64,000 bases of DNA from assembly GCA_963738405.1 (NCBI GenBank), contig CAVTWJ010000009.1, positions 160,001 through 224,000 on the forward strand, given 5' to 3'. Below are positions 11,810 through 35,956 of this stretch, one piece after another; the stretch's first letter is position 1; every line of letters begins with the position of its first letter. Made by a program: the position numbers and the translations under genes. The notes below the pieces were generated by a model that saw only the letters and a program-made list of their open reading frames with translations, was not told the DNA's origin and made no database searches. Source of the stretch: a candidate division FCPU426 bacterium. GTDB lineage: Bacteria; Oederibacteriota; Muellerivitia; Muellerivitales; Muellerivitaceae.

Positions 11810-12862
11810 ATGACCAGGAGCAAGTCTTCCGTGAAAAAAGTTCTTCTATTCCTTCTTTTAACGGTTTTGGGCGCGACCGCGATGGTCATTGGGCTGGCTT
11901 GTTCCGCCAACCCGACGGGCGCCAATTTTCAGGCTCCCATTCAGACCGTTCAAGCGGGGAACCCTACCCTCACCCCCACTTTTACTCCTACCTTTACGAT
12001 GACGTTTACGATCACCCCGACACCGACCAGTACGGTTACCCCGCTACCTCAATTGACGGTCTCGTGGGGAACTGGATTCGGCTCGTATTCATTTAAAAAC
12101 CCTTCAGGAATAGCGGTTCAAAATTCACCCTCGGTTTATGTTTATGTGGCGGATACGGGCAACAACCGGGTCGAGAAGTTCACGAACACTGGAAGCCTGG
12201 TGACATCATGGGGTGCTGGCGGCAAGGGCAAGGGAACAATCAATATCCCAAGTCCCGAGGCGGTCGCGATCAATTCTAATGGAACAACCCTTTACGTTGC
12301 TGAGTCGACTGGGATTGGGGTATTTGACCTCAACGGCAATTACCTCACTACCTTTACAAACCCTGGGACGGGTACCTTCAGCAATCCCCAAGCCTTGGCT
12401 TTGGATGGCACAGGTGACTTATTTGTTGGAGATACGGGAAATCACCGCATTGTTGAATTATCTTTTAACGGTTCCGCCCTATCTTATGGGTCGGCTGGCG
12501 GGATAACCATCACAGGCCCCAATGTCACGGGGTTGGTGGTGGATTCTTCCGACAACGTTTATGCCGCTCTCAGCAACAATACAATTGAAGGATTTACCTC
12601 CGGGGGAGTTTCCTTTTCCACGGTTCTAGGTTTCAACAATCCGAATGGTCTTGCCATGGATGCATCGAGCGATCTGTTTGTGGCGGATACAGGCAACAAG
12701 AGTATTGAGGAATTTCCAAGCCCAGCTCCCTACCAATCTCCAACAGTTTTCATCAATCCCAACTCAACACTCAACTCGCCCAAAGGCGTCGCGGTGGATG
12801 CTTCGGGGGAAATTTACGTGGTCGATTCGGCCAATAACACTGTTTATAACTTCGCGCCATGA
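11810..12862 (+). CDS. NHL-repeat lipoprotein with Thr/Pro-rich stalk
   Basis: Lipobox GLAC; TPTFT repeats; repeated P.G.A.D...YVADTGN.R. Confidence 0.85.
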   Translation: MTRSKSSVKKVLLFLLLTVLGATAMVIGLACSANPTGANFQAPIQTVQAGNPTLTPTFTPTFTMTFTITPTPTSTVTPLPQLTVSWGTGFGSYSFKNPSGIAVQNSPSVYVYVADTGNNRVEKFTNTGSLVTSWGAGGKGKGTINIPSPEAVAINSNGTTLYVAESTGIGVFDLNGNYLTTFTNPGTGTFSNPQALALDGTGDLFVGDTGNHRIVELSFNGSALSYGSAGGITITGPNVTGLVVDSSDNVYAALSNNTIEGFTSGGVSFSTVLGFNNPNGLAMDASSDLFVADTGNKSIEEFPSPAPYQSPTVFINPNSTLNSPKGVAVDASGEIYVVDSANNTVYNFAP

Positions 12863-12882
12863 TGGGCTTTAGAGGATTTGAA

Positions 12883-14121
12883 ATGAAAAAATGGTTATTA
12901 TTGTTTTTGGTTGTGGGAGTCCTGGCCTTTCCTTGGGCCTGTGGCAACTCGCCCACCAGCCCCGTCGCCACCCCTACCTTTACACCCACAGCAACCAATT
13001 GGAACAATTTAACCTCGACCAACACCATGACGCAAACCATGACAGCAACACCTACCGTGACGGCTACAAGTACCCCTACAAACCAAAACGGTACACCAAC
13101 AGTTACTTTTAGCCCTTCAGCAACATTCACACCTTATTCCTACACTCCCACCCCCACTACCACAAACACAATTACCTTTACGAATACTATTGCTTGGACA
13201 AACACGCTAACACCTACGAACACCCCCGTTCCAACCAGCACTCCTATTTCGGGAAGCACCCCGGCCCCCGCTTTCTCGGCGCAAGTGACGACTGGGATTC
13301 AGTATCCAAACGGAGTGGCTGTGAGCGGGGCCACTCTCTATGTGGCGGAAGGAAACCCCTCTGTTGGAGTTGCAAAGGTTCAAGTGTTCACGATTTCAGG
13401 AACTGCGCTTTCACCTGTTACGACATGGACGGCTTTCGGCTCCACCAACTTTGTGGAACCCTATGGCGTGGCAGCCGCGGGATCTACTATTTTCGTTTTG
13501 GATAACGGCGGGGGATCCAACGGCACGGGCGTCCTTTATGCTTTTGATTCGGCTGGAACAACCTTGGGTTCCATTGATAATTACTCTTCCGCTTCTTTCT
13601 CATTTCCTGAAGGTGTTGCTGTCGATTCAACAGGAACCACGGTTTATGTTTCGGATACAGAAAATAACAAGGTGGATCAATTCACTTTTAACGGGACTGT
13701 TTTTACCCCTCAAAATCAATGGTCCGGCGGAACCCTAAACTTTTTGGAACCTAGCGGAATCGCCGTCAATGCATCCGGAACCGTTTACGTGGCCGATTCG
13801 GGCAATGAAGTCATCCAATCCTACAGCGGTAGTTGGACAACCTTCGCTTCCACCAATAATTTCACTTCCAACATTTCGGATGTTTATGGGGTTGGGGTGG
13901 ATTCGAGAGGCTATGTTTACGCTTGTGACGTGGCCAACAGCGTCGTTCAACAGTTTGATAATAACGGTAATTACCTGTCCTATAGCTCGGGCGGTTCAGG
14001 CAATGCGGTTTTTGAAAGCCCCGACGGAGTTGTTTATACGGGTTCCTATTTAATTGTTTCTGACTATGAAAACGGCGCCGGACCCGCCTACACAGGTTCC
14101 TTAGAGTTCTTATCGCCCTAA
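12883..14121 (+). CDS. NHL-repeat lipoprotein with long Thr/Pro-rich stalk
   Basis: GAGGA RBS before ATG 12883; lipobox PWAC; NHL repeats PEGVAVD..VYVSDTENNKV. Confidence 0.85.
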   Translation: MKKWLLLFLVVGVLAFPWACGNSPTSPVATPTFTPTATNWNNLTSTNTMTQTMTATPTVTATSTPTNQNGTPTVTFSPSATFTPYSYTPTPTTTNTITFTNTIAWTNTLTPTNTPVPTSTPISGSTPAPAFSAQVTTGIQYPNGVAVSGATLYVAEGNPSVGVAKVQVFTISGTALSPVTTWTAFGSTNFVEPYGVAAAGSTIFVLDNGGGSNGTGVLYAFDSAGTTLGSIDNYSSASFSFPEGVAVDSTGTTVYVSDTENNKVDQFTFNGTVFTPQNQWSGGTLNFLEPSGIAVNASGTVYVADSGNEVIQSYSGSWTTFASTNNFTSNISDVYGVGVDSRGYVYACDVANSVVQQFDNNGNYLSYSSGGSGNAVFESPDGVVYTGSYLIVSDYENGAGPAYTGSLEFLSP

Positions 14122-14215
14122 GAACAATCCTAAAAAGTCTTCCTAAAACACCCTTTTCCTAAGATTTCCTACTATTTCCCAATAAGCTTGAGTTACAATA
14201 AATGCCAGAAAGCTT

Positions 14216-14234
14216 GGCAAAGATACACTTTGCC
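14216..14234. promoter_or_regulatory. Inverted repeat GGCAAAG-N5-CTTTGCC upstream of the second beta-barrel gene (candidate operator or 5'UTR hairpin)
   Basis: Perfect 7-bp inverted repeat, downstream of a TACAAT -10-like hexamer. Confidence 0.35.
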
Positions 14235-14269
14235 GACAATCCACAGGTTCAGGGAGGGACTGAAAGCGG

Positions 14270-15046
14270 ATGAGTCAAAAAACACTACTTTTTACAATGC
14301 TCGCTTTGATTTTGTCCGTAGGGGTCGTTCAAAAGATTTTCGCCCAAGATGATGATGCAAGATCGGCGGATTTCATCAAAAGCCGTACTTACATTGGTCT
14401 TTTGGGTACTTCCGCCACGCTTGATCAATGGGGCAATTTAAACGGAGGTTATCATTTTTCTTACGGCCCGGCGACGGTGGTTAGTGGGGCTCCTGTCACT
14501 GAAGTCGATTTGATTCCATCCATCACAAGAGAATTTGGATTTGGCGTTCTGGTAGGCCACCGGGAAGGTCCTTGGTCCGGAGAAATCAGTTTTTGGCGAA
14601 GCGATCATACCGCGACCTATGTAAATTCCTCTGCCGTGACTTTCACCAACCCTGCCAGCCTACAAGCGATTAATATCGACTTTAAGAGATATTTTCTGAC
14701 CCAACTACCCACACAGCCCTTTGTCAGCCTGGGGATGTCTTTTCCCTGGCTTTGGGTTCGTGGATTTTCATTGGTTCAAGACGGCTCCGGAAACACGTTA
14801 TATAGCGACGATGAAACCCTTTCAGGAATTGGTTTTAACCTGGGCGCGGGACTGGAAATTTACTTCGATAATAATATTTCCATATTGGGGGGCCTTTACC
14901 AGCGTTGGACCGGTTTTAATCAAATCAACGGAGCTTTTAAAATTCCCTCAAATAAACTTTACCTTGATGGCAACTCTAATGATGTGGGCGCCCTTGAAGG
15001 GGACGGCCTGAATATGTACGTCGGTACGACAGTCGGATTCGAATAA
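14270..15046 (+). CDS. Small outer-membrane beta-barrel protein, paralog of 11042..11803
   Basis: Shared SRTYIG, GHRE, INIDFKRYF, QPFV.LG..FPW and C-terminal GT..GFE. Confidence 0.78.
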   Translation: MSQKTLLFTMLALILSVGVVQKIFAQDDDARSADFIKSRTYIGLLGTSATLDQWGNLNGGYHFSYGPATVVSGAPVTEVDLIPSITREFGFGVLVGHREGPWSGEISFWRSDHTATYVNSSAVTFTNPASLQAINIDFKRYFLTQLPTQPFVSLGMSFPWLWVRGFSLVQDGSGNTLYSDDETLSGIGFNLGAGLEIYFDNNISILGGLYQRWTGFNQINGAFKIPSNKLYLDGNSNDVGALEGDGLNMYVGTTVGFE

Positions 15047-15177
15047 CTTAAAGTTCTCTTTTTTATTTCGCGGACCAGTTTAGGGTTGGGAATAGATTTT
15101 CACCCTAACTCCCCAAAATCGTAAAAGTTGGGTAAAATTAGTTTAATGTTTATCGATAAAAGAGGGGTGAGGCGAGA

Positions 15178-16368
15178 ATGAAAAAATCTTTGTTCTTTGC
15201 CATTTTGTTGCTTGTGAGTTTATTTATTCCCTGGGCCTGTAGCGACAACAACAATAACCCTACCAAACCCCCCAACGCGATCGGAGGGGCCACGAACACC
15301 CCGACGCCTCTTTCAGGCAGTACGCCTGCGGGAACGCCTTTACCCATTACGCTTACCCCCACTCCGACTTTCGTGAACAACTACGGCACTTCCGCGTCGC
15401 CAAATGGAATGTATTACGATGGGCTTGGAAATCTTCAAGTTATGGAAGGTGTGCCCGGAGTAACAAATTGGGCGACCTATAATGTCAATGCCGGCACGGG
15501 TACCCTTACTCGAATCGGGTTGGGAAATTTGATAGCCGTCGGGGTACCCACTCCCAATGCGACTCCGGGACCTTGGGTGGCGCCGGTTACCAATGTTTTG
15601 CAATTGCCCCAGGGTTTTGCTTACACTCCCGTGGGGAATGGTGGGGCTGGGTGGTACGGAATTTTGGATTCTTCCCCATCTGGTTCCGCAATTTTCTATG
15701 AAGGGAACAATTGGCCGACCTTTGGTTTCGACGTCCCGAATTACACAGTCGGATATGCATCTATCACTTTTTCTTCCCCTAGAGCCGTGGTCGGGGATTT
15801 GCTGACTGAAAACTTCTATATCGCGGACACAGGTAACGGTTATGTCGACGAAATGGGAGGGGCAAGCTTCGCGAACGGGGGCCTTGTTGACATTAACTGG
15901 CCTCACCGTTGGAACGGCTCTACGTCCAATTTTCAATTCAAAAAACCTGTTGTTCTGGCGATTGATGCGAACGACAACCTTTTTGTCGGTGATCAAGGCT
16001 ACAATCCGTCGGTGGTAGAGGAATACGCCCAGCAAGGAACCTATCTCGAAGGTCAATGGGTATTGACCGCGGGTTGTTCCATCGTTGGGTTGGCTGTGGA
16101 TAGCCTTACACCCGAGGATATTTATGTCTCGGATGCTGCCAACGGAGGCCAAGTGGAGGAATACCAAATCACAGGATACAATACCGTCTCACTCGTGAGA
16201 ACTTGGAATATTCCAGTCAATACGATTTCACTCAACGGGTATCATGAATACAATCCCTTCAGTCCCTCTTGCATTGCCCTGATCCAAGCGGGATTGGCCG
16301 CCGTTCCGCCAACGCAAATTGTTGTGGGTGACGTGAACAATAACCTCATAGATGTTTTTGGCCCTTAG
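15178..16368 (+). CDS. Lipoprotein with Thr/Pro stalk and divergent NHL-like beta-propeller
   Basis: Lipobox PWAC; FYIADTGNG, LAIDANDNLFVGD. Confidence 0.78.
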   Translation: MKKSLFFAILLLVSLFIPWACSDNNNNPTKPPNAIGGATNTPTPLSGSTPAGTPLPITLTPTPTFVNNYGTSASPNGMYYDGLGNLQVMEGVPGVTNWATYNVNAGTGTLTRIGLGNLIAVGVPTPNATPGPWVAPVTNVLQLPQGFAYTPVGNGGAGWYGILDSSPSGSAIFYEGNNWPTFGFDVPNYTVGYASITFSSPRAVVGDLLTENFYIADTGNGYVDEMGGASFANGGLVDINWPHRWNGSTSNFQFKKPVVLAIDANDNLFVGDQGYNPSVVEEYAQQGTYLEGQWVLTAGCSIVGLAVDSLTPEDIYVSDAANGGQVEEYQITGYNTVSLVRTWNIPVNTISLNGYHEYNPFSPSCIALIQAGLAAVPPTQIVVGDVNNNLIDVFGP

Positions 16369-16449: not shown

Positions 16450-16558
16450 AAACCCTGGCATATGTCAAAGCGCCCAACCCGCACTTGGCCTTAAAAAGTC
16501 CGTTTTTTGTGTTAGGCTGTGCCGCCCTGAAAACTCTTCTTTTTCATTGAGGTTGAGC

Positions 16559-17182
16559 ATGCTTCAAGCCATCAAAGCCTTCGCCCTCTTAGGGGGGGAA
16601 TGGGTTCTTTTTATTCTTTTGGGGCTCTCCCTTTGGTCCATCGCTGTGATGGTTCAAAAGATCCTCGAGTTCAGGGCCCGATCCCAGGGCGTGGGCGATC
16701 TTGAATCCAAGGTGCCGCGGCTTTTGGCCCAAGGCGAATTCAAACAGGCGGAAATACTGGCCCTCGCTTCCCCTTCCGCCGAAGGGGCTGTTTTAAGCAT
16801 AGGGTTGGCCAATTTGAACTTGGACCCGGAAGCCCTGGAACAGGTTATGGAAAGTCAGCGACTCCAGGAACGCCTCCTGATGGAAAAAAATATTTTGGTT
16901 TTGGGCACGCTTGGCAACAACGCGCCCTTTATCGGGCTTTTCGGGACGGTTTTAGGAATCATCAAGGCTTTCAACGACTTGGCCATCGCTGGAACCTCTG
17001 GCCCCACCATCGTCATGCGGGGGGTTTCAGAAGCCTTGGTGGCGACGGCCGTGGGGCTTCTTATCGCCATTCCCGCCGTGGCGGCTTACAACTACTTCCA
17101 AAGCCGTATCAAAAGATCCCTCGCTTCCGCCGACCGTTTTGCCCGGCTTCTCCTCGCCTACTCGGGCAAGAAAAAGCGGTAG
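16559..17182 (+). CDS. exbB: MotA/TolQ/ExbB proton channel family protein
   Basis: LGTLGNNAPFIGLFGTVLGII, SEALVATAVGL.AIPA. Confidence 0.88.
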   Translation: MLQAIKAFALLGGEWVLFILLGLSLWSIAVMVQKILEFRARSQGVGDLESKVPRLLAQGEFKQAEILALASPSAEGAVLSIGLANLNLDPEALEQVMESQRLQERLLMEKNILVLGTLGNNAPFIGLFGTVLGIIKAFNDLAIAGTSGPTIVMRGVSEALVATAVGLLIAIPAVAAYNYFQSRIKRSLASADRFARLLLAYSGKKKR

Positions 17183-17185
17183 GCC

Positions 17186-17590
17186 ATGGCCCATATCAGC
17201 CCCGATTCGGACGAGGCCATCACCCAAATCAATGTGGTGCCCTTGGTAGATATCATGCTGGTGCTGTTGATCATCTTCATGCTGACCGCCAGTTTTATCT
17301 CCACTCCCTCGATTCCGGTGAAGGTTCCCAAGGCCCTAACCTCCAACCCCACCGCTCCCGCCAGCCAGGCGCTTGTCCTGACGATCAAGGGAGATATTTA
17401 CTACCAGAACCACAAAACCGACAAGACGGCCCTCGCCCAGGCGCTTTACGAGGCCGCATTGCTTAATCCTAATCTTCGCCTGGTCCTGTCGGCGGACGCC
17501 CAGGTCACCCACGGCAAGGTGGTGGAACTGTTGGACTTGGCCCGGCAGGCGGGGGTAACCCAAATCGCGCTGGGAGTGACAACTCCTTGA
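17186..17590 (+). CDS. exbD: Biopolymer transport protein ExbD/TolR
   Basis: INVVPLVDIMLVLLIIFM; LSAD..V.HG.VV. Confidence 0.9.
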   Translation: MAHISPDSDEAITQINVVPLVDIMLVLLIIFMLTASFISTPSIPVKVPKALTSNPTAPASQALVLTIKGDIYYQNHKTDKTALAQALYEAALLNPNLRLVLSADAQVTHGKVVELLDLARQAGVTQIALGVTTP

Positions 17591-18189
17591 GGCCTCGTGA
17601 TTTTATGGCCGCGCCCCTCGGGCCCTGGGGAGTTTCCCTTGGCTTGCACCTTCTTTTGATTGGGATCCTTCTCTTCTTGGGCCGGCAACAGACCTTGGAT
17701 TTAAGTCTTTTCGATCTAGATATTTCCGGAACCAATTCACCGGTCGCTATCGCTCCCCCCGCCCCGGAAGATGAACTTTGGCAGAAACCTTTTTTAAAAC
17801 ATCGGCCTCCCCCTTCCAAGACCGTTGAAAAAAAAGCGGAACCGCCTGCGGCCCTTTCCACGGGCCCGGCAGAATCTTCCGGCAATGGAACTGGTTCCTA
17901 TCGTTCCCTCGCGGAAGTCAGCCAGCTTCCCCATTTCATCACCCAGGTGAAGGCCCTCTACCCTGACGCCGCGAAAAGGGCCAATATCGAGGGTATGGTG
18001 ATTTTACAAGTGGACATCGACGCCACCGGTGCGGTTAAAATGGTGAAATTGATCCAGGGATTGGGTTGCGGCTGTGATGAGGCCGCCATGTCGGCCGCCC
18101 AGCAATCGGTTTTCTCGCCCGCTTACGCGGGGGATGAACCGGTTCCGGTCCGCCTCCGAATCCCCTATCGTTTCAAGTTTGACCAATAA
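17587..18189 (+). CDS. tonB: Energy transducer TonB
   Basis: TM with SLGLH, Pro-rich linker, YPDAAKRANIEGMV C-terminal domain. Confidence 0.88.
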   Translation: MRPRDFMAAPLGPWGVSLGLHLLLIGILLFLGRQQTLDLSLFDLDISGTNSPVAIAPPAPEDELWQKPFLKHRPPPSKTVEKKAEPPAALSTGPAESSGNGTGSYRSLAEVSQLPHFITQVKALYPDAAKRANIEGMVILQVDIDATGAVKMVKLIQGLGCGCDEAAMSAAQQSVFSPAYAGDEPVPVRLRIPYRFKFDQ

Positions 18190-19081: not shown

Positions 19082-20986
19082 ATGGCTTTTTTGGGCAATA
19101 AAAATTCTCTCATTCTCTTCCTGATTTTTTCGGCCCTTTCTATCCTCATGGCTTTGCCCCGAATCTTGGGTGATTCCTTGACGGCGGATGAGCCCACCGA
19201 CATCGTGAATGGCTACTATTACCTTACTCAAGGCGACACCCTCCACAACCCCAACCACCCTCCCCTGGCGGGGGCGTTGACTTCCTGGCCCCTTCTTTTC
19301 ATGAACTTGAAAACACAGCCCTTTGAGTTTGGGGGTTCTCCAGCCCAATCGGCACTCACCAGCGATGGCCATCGGTTGAATCGGCCAGATCAAGTTCCCG
19401 ATTCTCTTAAAGAATCGGGATACCCAAGTCTCGGGCCTCGGCTTGTGGCCTCGGCCCAGGGGGTCAGTTCTAATATGGAACAGACACGCCTAAACAGAGA
19501 ACCTCGACCTGTGGTCTCGGTTCAAGGCGACTTCTGGGATCGGGCGCATCTGTTTCTGTTTAACTGGAATCTCGACCGATTAAATGAAATGACCCTTTGG
19601 ACCCGGCTTACCAGTTTGGGAATGGGGTTAGGGGTGGGTTTCCTGATTTTTTGGACCTTTAAAAAAGAACCCCTTTGGCTTTTGGGGGCCCTAGGGCTCT
19701 GGGCATTCGACCCCCTGATGGGGGCCCTGTCGAGCCTGGCCAAAACGGACATCGCCCCAGCTTTTTTTTACCTATGGGCGGTTCTGGCTTTCCAGCGGGC
19801 CCTGGGTAAAACATCATGGGAAGCTCCCGTTACGGCAGGGGTTCTTTCCGCATTCATGGTGGGTTGCAAGTTTTACGGGTTAGTTCTCATCCCCCTTTTC
19901 ATTATTCTCGAATGGTTAAATGAAAGGGAACGGTTCAAGCCCCGCGCCTTTACCTGGAAGGTGGCCCGGGGGATGTTCCTGCGCTGGGGACTGGGAACGG
20001 CGGGGTTTTGCCTTATGCTTTTTCTATTATTTCTTCCCGGCACCCTCTCCCAGCCCGGGCATCCCATGCCCTGGAATCTGATCCTTGAGAAACTGGGCGA
20101 GGATTTCGCTTACGCCCCCCAGGCCCGGCCGGTTTTCTTTTTCGGGCAAGCGGGCCTCATCAGCCATTGGTACTATTTGCCCTGCGCTTTTGTTTTGAAG
20201 GAGCCCATCCCTTTTCTGGTCCTTCTGGTCTTAATTCTGCTTCTCATATTAAGAAAAAGGGTCATAGTCCCAGCTTGGCAATGGGCGCCCCCCTTGATTT
20301 TTACTCTGACGCTATTAAAAGCTCCCAACTTGGGGGTTCGGTACCTGCTTCCGGTTTTTCCATTTCTTTACCTTTTAGGGGGAAGGGCCTGGGCGTGGAT
20401 GGTTCAAGCGGAGCATGGAAACGACCAAAGGGCCTGGCGTCTGGCGGCTTTCGGGCTCTTGGCTTGGCAGGCTTTGAGCGTGGGGCTTCAATCCCCAAGG
20501 GCGATCAGCTATTTCAACGACTGGGTTCCGGACGACCAAAAGATTTTCCTATTGGGTGATTCCAACCTGGATTGGGGACAGGATTTAAAAAGGCTGGCCG
20601 CCGAAAGCGGGATAAGGAAGTGGGGAAGGGTCAAACTGGCCCTTTATGGCGCGGTCGATCCCAAGGTCTATGGCTTGGATTGGGAACCCTGGACAACCGA
20701 GGATTTAAAGGGGCCCCAAGCCGGGTTTGCCTACGCTGTGAACGCTTCGTTTCTGCAAATCGGCCCCATCGCCTATCCCCCCACCCGGGAAATTGCCCAG
20801 AGTTGGATTCGAAACCTTCCGCCCTCGGGCCGCGTGGGGGAAACCTTTTATTATTTTGAGATTCCAGGGAAAAAGAAAACCGAACATGCCAGGTTGGGAA
20901 TGAAGGGGTCCGGTGATTTTCTTCTCTCGGCACCCTATCTGCAAATCCGGGGTTATGCCGACCCCGCTTTCAATGTGATTCCCTAG
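19082..20986 (+). CDS. GT-C family 39 (ArnT/PMT-like) glycosyltransferase containing a 66-codon insertion
   Basis: TADEP, NPNHPPL, RYLLP, DSNLDWGQDL motifs. Confidence 0.8.
   Translation: MAFLGNKNSLILFLIFSALSILMALPRILGDSLTADEPTDIVNGYYYLTQGDTLHNPNHPPLAGALTSWPLLFMNLKTQPFEFGGSPAQSALTSDGHRLNRPDQVPDSLKESGYPSLGPRLVASAQGVSSNMEQTRLNREPRPVVSVQGDFWDRAHLFLFNWNLDRLNEMTLWTRLTSLGMGLGVGFLIFWTFKKEPLWLLGALGLWAFDPLMGALSSLAKTDIAPAFFYLWAVLAFQRALGKTSWEAPVTAGVLSAFMVGCKFYGLVLIPLFIILEWLNERERFKPRAFTWKVARGMFLRWGLGTAGFCLMLFLLFLPGTLSQPGHPMPWNLILEKLGEDFAYAPQARPVFFFGQAGLISHWYYLPCAFVLKEPIPFLVLLVLILLLILRKRVIVPAWQWAPPLIFTLTLLKAPNLGVRYLLPVFPFLYLLGGRAWAWMVQAEHGNDQRAWRLAAFGLLAWQALSVGLQSPRAISYFNDWVPDDQKIFLLGDSNLDWGQDLKRLAAESGIRKWGRVKLALYGAVDPKVYGLDWEPWTTEDLKGPQAGFAYAVNASFLQIGPIAYPPTREIAQSWIRNLPPSGRVGETFYYFEIPGKKKTEHARLGMKGSGDFLLSAPYLQIRGYADPAFNVIP
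19328..19525. mobile_element. Putative miniature palindromic element inserted in frame (198 nt)
   Basis: Multiple hairpins, TTGAG...TTCAA boundaries; removal gives ...KTQPFEGDFW... Confidence 0.55.
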
Positions 20987-34880: not shown

Positions 34881-34987
34881 ACTTCCTCCCTGAAGTAACA
34901 GAATTTCGCTCTTGAGCTTAGCGGTAAAAGAGTAAAGAAAAAACCCCCTCAAGTGCGCCAATTCCCATATGGAATCGGCAATGCGAA

Positions 34988-35956
34988 TCAGGTAAAAACC
35001 TGTCTTATAAAGGCCACATCCTCCGACGACAGGGGCTTATCTTGGCCTGATAGATTGACCTGCACCTGGTTTAAGTTCCTAAAGCCTGGAATCACGCAAG
35101 CCACCACCGGATTAGCTAAAAGATACTGTAGAGCCACCCGGGCCAAGTCCTTCACATCCGAGCCGAAACGGGATTTCAATTTCTCAATCTTGGGTTGGAG
35201 TCCTTCCAGGGTTTCAGTGGTGAATCGCTTGTCCCCGAGGCGGTGGTCGCCCGACTCAAACTTGGGAGGATTTTTGGGGTCAAATTTGCCCAAGAGCAGG
35301 CCCTGGTTGAGGGGGGAAAAGGCCACGAAACTTATTTTTTTCTCTTCCATCAGTTTCCTGACCGGTGTCCCTTCCCGGATGAATTGGTCGTCCATGATAT
35401 GGGCCCAGCTTTGGAGTACGTCTGGTTTGACCTTAGGAACCACTCTTGTGAAATCGTCATTGGAATAGGCGGACTGCCCGATCAGGCGGATCTTGCCTTC
35501 TTTTTTCAGCTTGTGCATGGTTTCTACCGCCCCATCCAAATAAAAGTCCTGGGGACCGAAGAAGCCATGGTGGAAATAATAAAGATCGATCACATCCCTT
35601 TTCAGGTTAATCAAGGACTGTTCGCACTGGTGGCGGATATGGGCCGGTTCGTAGGCATGGGCCGCGGTTCCTGGGAACCAGCCAACCTTGGTGGCGACGG
35701 TCAGTTTTTTGGATCGGTCGCCCAAAATACGGGCAAGCATTTGTTCCGCCTTGCCGTTGCCGTAAACGTCCGCGTTGTCGAAATGGTTCACGCCCTGGTC
35801 GAGGGCGTGATCAATGGCCCTTCTCACCTCGCCCTCATCCACATTGGCCCAGCCGTTGGCCTCACCGTTGACCCAGTTCAAACCTCCCATAGTCCAACAG
35901 CCCAAGCTGATCTCCGAAACCTCGATATCCGATTGTCCAAGACGGCGGTAACGCAT
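34988..35956 (-). CDS. Aldo/keto reductase
   Basis: LGCW, FDNADVYG, ATK, IDLYYFH, SPL.QG, VIPG. Confidence 0.92.
   Translation of the reverse strand: MRYRRLGQSDIEVSEISLGCWTMGGLNWVNGEANGWANVDEGEVRRAIDHALDQGVNHFDNADVYGNGKAEQMLARILGDRSKKLTVATKVGWFPGTAAHAYEPAHIRHQCEQSLINLKRDVIDLYYFHHGFFGPQDFYLDGAVETMHKLKKEGKIRLIGQSAYSNDDFTRVVPKVKPDVLQSWAHIMDDQFIREGTPVRKLMEEKKISFVAFSPLNQGLLLGKFDPKNPPKFESGDHRLGDKRFTTETLEGLQPKIEKLKSRFGSDVKDLARVALQYLLANPVVACVIPGFRNLNQVQVNLSGQDKPLSSEDVAFIRQVFT

Follow-up and report, generated by a model that had tools for sequence, protein, structure and literature searches.

The window analysed, a stretch of 64,000 nucleotides of a single contig, carries at 19082..20986 on the plus strand an open reading frame of 634 aa for a membrane glycosyltransferase of the GT-C fold (PMT_2/GT39-like). 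Upstream of this gene lie what we take, from the sequence, to be a TonB-ExbB-ExbD-like cluster (16547-18189) and three NHL-type lipoprotein-like ORFs with long Thr-Pro linkers (11810-16368). The DE motif of the protein (D36-E37, invariant alignment columns) is intact, and a match to Pfam PF13231 was obtained under the curated cut-off (E 4.6e-5). For the AlphaFold model of the protein (mean pLDDT 87.9, pTM 0.88), the top Foldseek matches were Pmt4 (9i5k, E 1.2e-6) and ArnT (5ezm, E 7.5e-5). Coverage of the window by one DNA sequencing run was confined to 20141-20291.

A protein search with the glycosyltransferase returned 186 homologues, and the best 53 of the 186 were aligned. No insert was present between the HPP helix and the G-D motif in 48 of the 53; three had shorter inserts (+18, +22 and +24 aa), one began within the insert, and one was without the region. 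Because five insert-free homologues read exactly PFQGD, the net insert in the gene studied is 66 codons long: compared with this empty allele, it takes up 198 nt at 19325..19522 on the plus strand (residues 82-147), and its boundaries can slide by a few bases. A preliminary description of this DNA had reported 66 extra codons, packed with hairpins and bounded by TTGAG (19323-27) and TTCAA (19521-25). When the sequence was read again, these motifs and all the listed stems were found in place; the extra codons proved to be a real insert, and empty alleles do exist, in the PFQGD homologues and in the congener G002.

In the structural model, the insert lies in the loop that follows membrane helix 1 of the GT-C fold; from the known topology of this fold, we take this loop to be the first external one. 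Residues 93-147 had a pLDDT below 50 and the surrounding host fold was confident; the low values were expected, since the insert is absent from most of the alignment rows. The strong folding attributed to the insert was borne out in one respect only. Folding was better than in dinucleotide shuffles (RNA z -3.6, DNA z -4.2; 0/200 as good), but not significantly better than in synonymous-codon controls (RNA, plus strand: z -1.5, 17/200 as good), the remaining three tests of this kind being weaker still. The synonymous-codon control is a weak one because the peptide fixes most of the stem bases.

The 66 extra codons consist of a 66-base repeat with two hairpins, present three times head to tail (3 x 22 codons), in register and partly decayed; they are not the single 198-nt element, bounded by left and right ends, that had been proposed. 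Unit 2 (19397..19462, plus strand) is intact. Its first hairpin, P1 (19397-19419), is followed by a linker (19420-19432), a second hairpin, P2, which holds a TC/TC internal loop (19433-19457), and the tail AGGGG (19458-19462); it scored 85.6 bits with the covariance model, to whose training set it belongs. Unit 3 (19463..19528, plus strand) is moderately decayed (37/66 positions identical to unit 2), with P1 at 19463-19485, the linker at 19486-19498, P2 at 19499-19523 and a tail at 19524-19528 that overlaps the host Gln-Gly codons. Unit 1 (19331..19396, plus strand) is strongly decayed, with 30/66 positions identical to unit 2 and 27/66 to unit 3, and was missed by the covariance model. A profile built from 141 other copies peaks exactly at its start, 19331, in register with units 2 and 3, and just 82 of 3,179,025 plus-strand positions score as high. 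The 10-bp stem and the GGGCC..GGCCC stem of the preliminary description are P1 and P2 of unit 2, and the next two hairpins listed there are P1 and P2 of unit 3, although the 66-nt periodicity had been missed; the left-end TTGGG..CCCAA and the 12-nt palindrome are present in the decayed unit 1 but are not conserved features of the family. Searches of the same genome with BLASTN and nhmmer gave many matches, to the middle and right thirds of the insert alone, and a perfect 66-nt tandem of the repeat on another contig.

In the repeat family, P1 is a hairpin of about 9-11 bp with a loop mostly of 5 nt, and the 13-nt linker has a conserved AC..CCAA. P2 consists of 5 bp, an internal loop (TC/TC in 105/141 copies), 3 bp and a 5-nt loop beginning with TTG or TGG. 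The unit ends in a tail, AGGNG, with AG in 126/141 copies, and end-to-end pairing is absent from it. The TTCAA that had been read as the end of an element belongs partly to the 3' arm of P2 and partly to the tail. The stem sequences vary widely yet remain paired. Forty copies aligned with plain MAFFT showed changes on both sides at 17/18 pairs, and in 141 distinct model-fitted copies covariation was found at 17/17 pairs, with 92.5% of cells paired and far lower values in slid controls; in paralogous copies, such figures can be inflated by template-switch repair of palindromes, by relatedness and, for the 141 copies, by the structure-fitted alignment. In P2, A-C exceeded G-T by 47:18 on the plus strand of the 141 copies; this suggests that the reverse strand is the one that folds, and on that strand the internal loop reads as a tandem GA/GA. 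In P1, G-T and A-C were balanced (40:37) or the plus strand was favoured (33:12).

An HMM of the repeat matched 56 places in this genome and one in the reversed genome, and the covariance model found at least 59 matches, so that the other genomic copies foreseen in the preliminary description do exist. With the same model, the repeat was detected in 27/27 genomes of the family, at no fewer than 1-97 copies each, and outside the family in 1/18 genomes, weakly (E 0.007), with none in the other 17; all these counts are lower bounds, 101 candidates having been scored per genome. The replication-strand bias is weak (31/47 copies on the G-rich strand). Elsewhere in the window, a lone P1-type hairpin, a probable partial copy, lies between two genes at 34957..34979 on the plus strand (covariance-model match 34949-35001, E 3.7e-4); the gene upstream of it is presumably, judging from its sequence, aldo-keto-reductase-like. 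Rfam gave no match at gathering level in the window, where two chance matches both fell outside the insert, and none on two loci with intact copies. No description of the 66-nt repeat was found in Rfam or in the literature searched, which included PMC3733652 without its supplementary repeat tables. The repeat was not found in viral contigs with one pattern, and a blastn search with a single copy did not find it among plasmid and phage records. A strict pattern gave 0 matches, and a looser one 3 loci, in a contig database from which near genomes are possibly absent.

The number of units at the glycosyltransferase site differs within the genus. The congener G001 has one 66-nt unit, G002 has none, and G003 has a 100-N scaffold gap with matching ends. 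The inserts of the homologues P0003, P0004 and P0005 were judged from the peptide alone; that of P0004 resembles a single unit, again in this frame, and for P0003 the insert (+18 aa) was not assignable to the repeat family. In a tree of 19 rows picked from the top homologue matches, the insert carriers all fell within one 100/100 clade of 7 rows, which also contains the empty G002 protein. Since this clade, in which one member is empty, forms a polytomy, single and repeated insertion at the site are both compatible with the tree. The empty alleles carry CAR GGN at the site, which resembles the repeat tail in the same frame; no left-hand duplicate was recognisable at the insert.

Copies of the repeat were also found in frame, in sense or antisense orientation, in genes for QueC, a UvrD/AddA-like helicase (two copies), an esterase, PemK, ArsR, GNAT and ParB-like proteins. 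The first helicase insert (+69 nt, sense) is absent from 5/5 relatives; the second (+69 nt, antisense) is common to G003 and absent from G001 and G002, the two remaining relatives not being anchorable. These two inserts are flanked by direct repeats of 7 nt (one mismatch) and 10 nt. The esterase insert (+66 nt) has an 11-nt direct repeat (one mismatch), its empty allele being too diverged for base alignment. In QueC, separate antisense inserts occupy the same loop in two genera, in this genome, G000 (locus L059), and in G024 (L093), and three relatives are empty. Comparison of L142 with L091 revealed a clean 6-nt duplication, CAGGGG. In the cleanest pairs, the direct repeats include the repeat tail and sometimes the start of P1. 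The insertion without target duplication that had been assumed is contradicted by the 6-11 nt direct repeats of the clean empty/filled pairs. Copies with such repeats are a minority, however: upstream matches to a copy's own tail at 5-6/6 bases were found for just 13/101 single or first-in-array copies (control 2.3%), and a test for a CAGG motif upstream of P1 was null (14/101 copies vs 3-13 in control windows). Both results speak against integration at sites like the repeat's own junction. The period of the arrays is 66 or 69 within genes and also 65 and 67 between genes; the intergenic 65 and 67 beside the coding 66 and 69 indicate that frame-keeping reflects selection.

The copies, the covariation and the empty alleles support the earlier view of an inserted, hairpin-rich, non-autonomous and probably mobile DNA, which is tolerated because the frame is kept. 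We consider it likely that the insert, with its three tandem units of the 66-base repeat found across the family, is selfish, non-autonomous DNA in an outer loop predicted to be disordered, where it lies in frame and is probably translated as a neutral passenger peptide. A unit would be recognised in its folded state on single-stranded DNA (for P2, probably the reverse strand) and copied as a circle or a rolling-circle multimer. It may then integrate at short sites that look like the junction where two units meet head to tail (CAGGNG and the first bases of P1) and leave direct repeats of 6-11 nt. The host Gln-Gly codons (CAR GGN) mimic this junction in register, and hence the frame is kept. 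One unit likely entered the glycosyltransferase gene in an ancestor of the genus; growth to three units could have occurred by slippage, unequal exchange or repeated insertion, with decay afterwards. Rolling-circle elements of the IS91 type form tandem multimers and have the same short motif at both ends, and the repeat resembles them in both features.

A link to the repeat was found for one gene family alone, that of membrane-anchored ParB/Noc-like proteins. In this genome, 13/14 full-length genes of these proteins contain or adjoin a repeat copy, the profile used having been seeded from those same 13 genes, and three shorter relatives have no copy. ParB-like genes hold 21/47 HMM matches to the repeat in 1.2% of the genome. 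In an independent test on the best 124 listed matches outside this genome (150 of 903 were listed; rows of G042 and two second-piece rows were excluded), 34 of the 124, in 9/16 genomes, lay in or beside a ParB-like gene, with 0.7 expected. Repeat and ParB-like gene counts were correlated across 28 genomes (rho 0.79), though the number of repeats also goes with genome size (rho 0.64) and related genomes among the 28 are not independent of one another. Ten genomes without a ParB-like gene at the threshold still had a median of 8.5 copies. The proteins have long floppy linkers and their genes lie in variable islands, and these two features could be a partial source of the enrichment without a direct role. 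The closest solved relatives of the family are Noc and ParB, and an ESM Atlas search with one of the proteins gave matches that were all below 0.8 and all ParB-like.

The 14 loci in this genome (L042-L054; contig:position) are C22:49033, C19:25491, C14:125320, C9:24949, C12:78082, C6:8844, C5:686, C14:238826, C23:8188, C4:46861, C5:30577, C23:146116, C1:103701 and C16:45785. They are solo ParB_N/HTH-transmembrane genes, whose C-terminal module is of one of two kinds. Judged by eye, about 10/14 of them have a variant hairpin in antisense orientation over the stop codon or shortly after it, and in several the stop codon is enclosed by such a hairpin of the repeat family. The gene at C14:238826 is followed by a remnant, captured second 3' end of the other module type, which suggests swapping of C-terminal modules at the repeats. 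Upstream of ParB-like genes without ParB_N, phased arrays of a gene-specific short motif, occurring about every 21 bp, were observed (C5:686-2257, C4:46861, C12:78082, C14:238826, C9:24949 and C14:125320). It is conceivable, albeit rather unlikely, that a REPtron-like system operates here, with the repeat as the cis partner. Its cognate would be the membrane-anchored ParB/Noc-like CTP-clamp protein and not an HUH transposase; this protein would bind or help to copy the folded two-hairpin DNA, its genes would end in and be flanked by the repeat, and peptides would be seeded across the proteins of an uncultured family.

Other enzymes were searched for as well. Reverse transcriptases were present in 14/31 genomes, and a repeat copy was near 1/30 of their loci. 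IS110 was not found in 3/5 high-copy genomes, and 2/8 IS110 loci had a copy nearby. Neither of these two gene families was thus linked to the repeat. Searches for Y2_Tnp were blank, as was their control.

According to one alternative, gene cassettes in variable islands are recombined site-specifically at the repeat, which would be attC-, CALIN- or pdif-like, and the copies in the glycosyltransferase gene are strays from aberrant recombination. The sites called attC have a conserved structure with variable stem sequence, as does the repeat. Neighbouring copies are co-oriented 42:8 in relatives' loci, but those loci were selected for several matches and neighbours in this genome are not co-oriented (6:9). 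Copies often bracket toxin-antitoxin pairs and genes for AAA_14/DUF4143 ATPases, Fic and ORF6N, and a 982-bp duplication bounded by the repeat was found in G001 (L135:4366-5428). The segment duplicated there, exactly copy-to-copy, comprises a small gene and the 5' part of a Fic gene. In three loci of relatives (L087:3041-4214, L088:3241-5314 and L086:3318-4368), toxin-antitoxin pairs and AAA_14/DUF4143 or zeta-like ATPase genes lie between co-oriented repeat arrays. Against cassette sites, the integron integrase TIGR02249 was found in 0/31 genomes, though its control was blank too, and 0/6 tyrosine-recombinase loci of this genome had a covariance-model match. The boxes of attC are RYYYAAC/GTTRRRY, and the repeat consensus is without them; moreover, single units lie inside conserved genes in both orientations. 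We regard the cassette explanation as improbable.

A small chance was given to the idea that the repeat has been domesticated, as an element acting in RNA stability or termination or as a docking site for a protein; it would then have spread by gene conversion, and its coding copies would be selected for an effect on mRNA or DNA. The strong covariation, the linker and loop bases conserved across the family and the antisense variants over the stop codons of several ParB-like genes favour this idea, but the repeat occurs in genes in either orientation, its copy number ranges between genomes over the lower bounds given above, its occurrence among congeners is patchy, and the copies in the glycosyltransferase gene are decaying.

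The preliminary description had thought of a non-autonomous, HUH-mobilised miniature element or an omega-RNA relic; in a model of the IS200/IS605 type, TnpA would move it by peel-and-paste, with TTGAG as the target and TTCAA as the right end. Elements of this type have a conserved TCAA/TTCAA right end and make no target duplication. Like their miniature derivatives, the repeat is probably recognised as single-strand hairpins, imperfect ones that likely fold as single-stranded DNA; YCAA occurs in the linker shortly after P1, and Y1_Tnp genes are present in 22/31 family genomes. However, the insert has three units and not two ends, the tail has AG as its predominant start, and direct repeats flank the clean sites. 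TnpB was found in 0/31 family genomes (its control rang in 8/14), which makes an omega-RNA relic unlikely. Neither a tnpA, a tnpB nor a RAYT gene could be tied to the repeat: the 3 Y1_Tnp loci of this genome had no covariance-model match, and in relatives a copy lay within about 1.5 kb at 3/28 such loci and on both sides at 0/28. No Y1_Tnp was found in the high-copy genomes G021 (99% complete, at least 69 copies) and G041 (89%, at least 63 copies). Two of the own Y1_Tnp loci carry unrelated terminal inverted repeats. In these (L039:722-1927 on C19 and L041:895-1925 on C12), genes of about 320 aa have terminal inverted repeats of 38-39 nt starting GGGGTCAGGCCT and form an IS-like family unrelated to the 66-nt repeat. 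The single-element model is largely refuted by the unit structure, the AG tail and the absence of TnpB, and its chances are slim. Removal from the mRNA as a self-splicing or self-excising RNA, also suggested earlier, is extremely unlikely: the predicted fold is stable and removal would give back a family-like loop, but Rfam has no match, the units are tandem and variable in number, antisense copies exist beside sense ones in genes, and coding copies keep the frame, which splicing does not require.

Of the described systems, Rickettsia palindromic elements (RPEs) can be compared with the repeat favoured here as a selfish passenger. RPEs are long stem-loops of 105-146 bp with terminal inverted repeats, according to the section of PMC2229807 that deals with them, and are tolerated by host enzymes such as guanylate kinase (PMC2229807, PMC10969869). 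Like them, the repeat is lineage-specific, dispersed and palindromic, and is found between genes and in frame in unrelated conserved genes, where it yields a recurring peptide (PMC2229807, PMC10969869, sections on RPEs); multiple copies restricted to one lineage, conserved stem-loops and in-frame inserts with empty orthologues are all present. It differs from the RPEs outlined in PMC2229807 in that its unit of about 66 bp has two separate hairpins, a 13-nt linker, a fixed internal loop and highly variable covarying stems, forms tandem arrays and is linked to ParB-like genes. Assignment to the Rickettsia RPE family proper was rejected, because neither a single stem-loop of 105-146 bp nor terminal inverted repeats, as given in that section, were found. 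The repeat is the phenomenon of Rickettsia palindromic elements in a new lineage and with a new architecture; it behaves like RPEs and intragenic REPs but belongs to none of their sequence families.

With REP/BIME-RAYT systems, as far as described in the relevant part of PMC2817692, it shares imperfect hairpins with compensatory changes, modular tandem arrays and clustering around one gene family; rayt genes show capture of 3' ends next to repeats, as does the ParB-like gene. Intragenic copies adding 20-30 aa are also known for GTAG/CGTC-tagged REPs, but the repeat has no conserved GTAG or CGTC head of the kind presented in the main text of PMC3733652 (top head position 61/141). In addition, it does not flank rayt genes (none of the 3 own or 28 related Y1_Tnp loci was flanked on both sides), and the associated gene is ParB/Noc-like with membrane segments and not an HUH transposase. 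Ssn nucleases with NTS/SRM likewise have hairpin repeats tied to a cognate gene, and P1 is loosely similar to the dRS3 palindrome (PMC11893778, in the part on these repeats); unlike in the Ssn-SRM system of that part, GIY-YIG loci with the repeat numbered 0/29 in relatives and 0/2 in this genome, whose own Ssn-like gene has other flanking repeats. This small gene (C9:12096-12525, L062) lies between inverted hairpin repeats of a different family. Caulobacter CIR repeats, which also have two inverted-repeat arms and a linker, are about 110 bp long, contain GANTC, are closed in all frames and, in the account of PMC2229807 drawn on here, are not found in genes; the 66-nt repeat is shorter and sits in genes in frame. 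Unlike IS200/IS605 derivatives, it has no TnpB and no linked TnpA.

The origin and movement of RPE-type coding palindromes have been an open question since their description, and the reviews of such repeats name no mobilising enzyme in the sections concerned (PMC2229807, PMC10969869). The present family offers what RPEs lack, namely hundreds of strongly covarying copies and young empty/filled pairs with readable ends, together with one site that has 0, 1 or 3 units and a strong association with a single gene family. In this lineage, what is likely selfish DNA adds 22-residue modules to conserved enzymes, among them a GT-C glycosyltransferase, QueC and a UvrD/AddA-like helicase.
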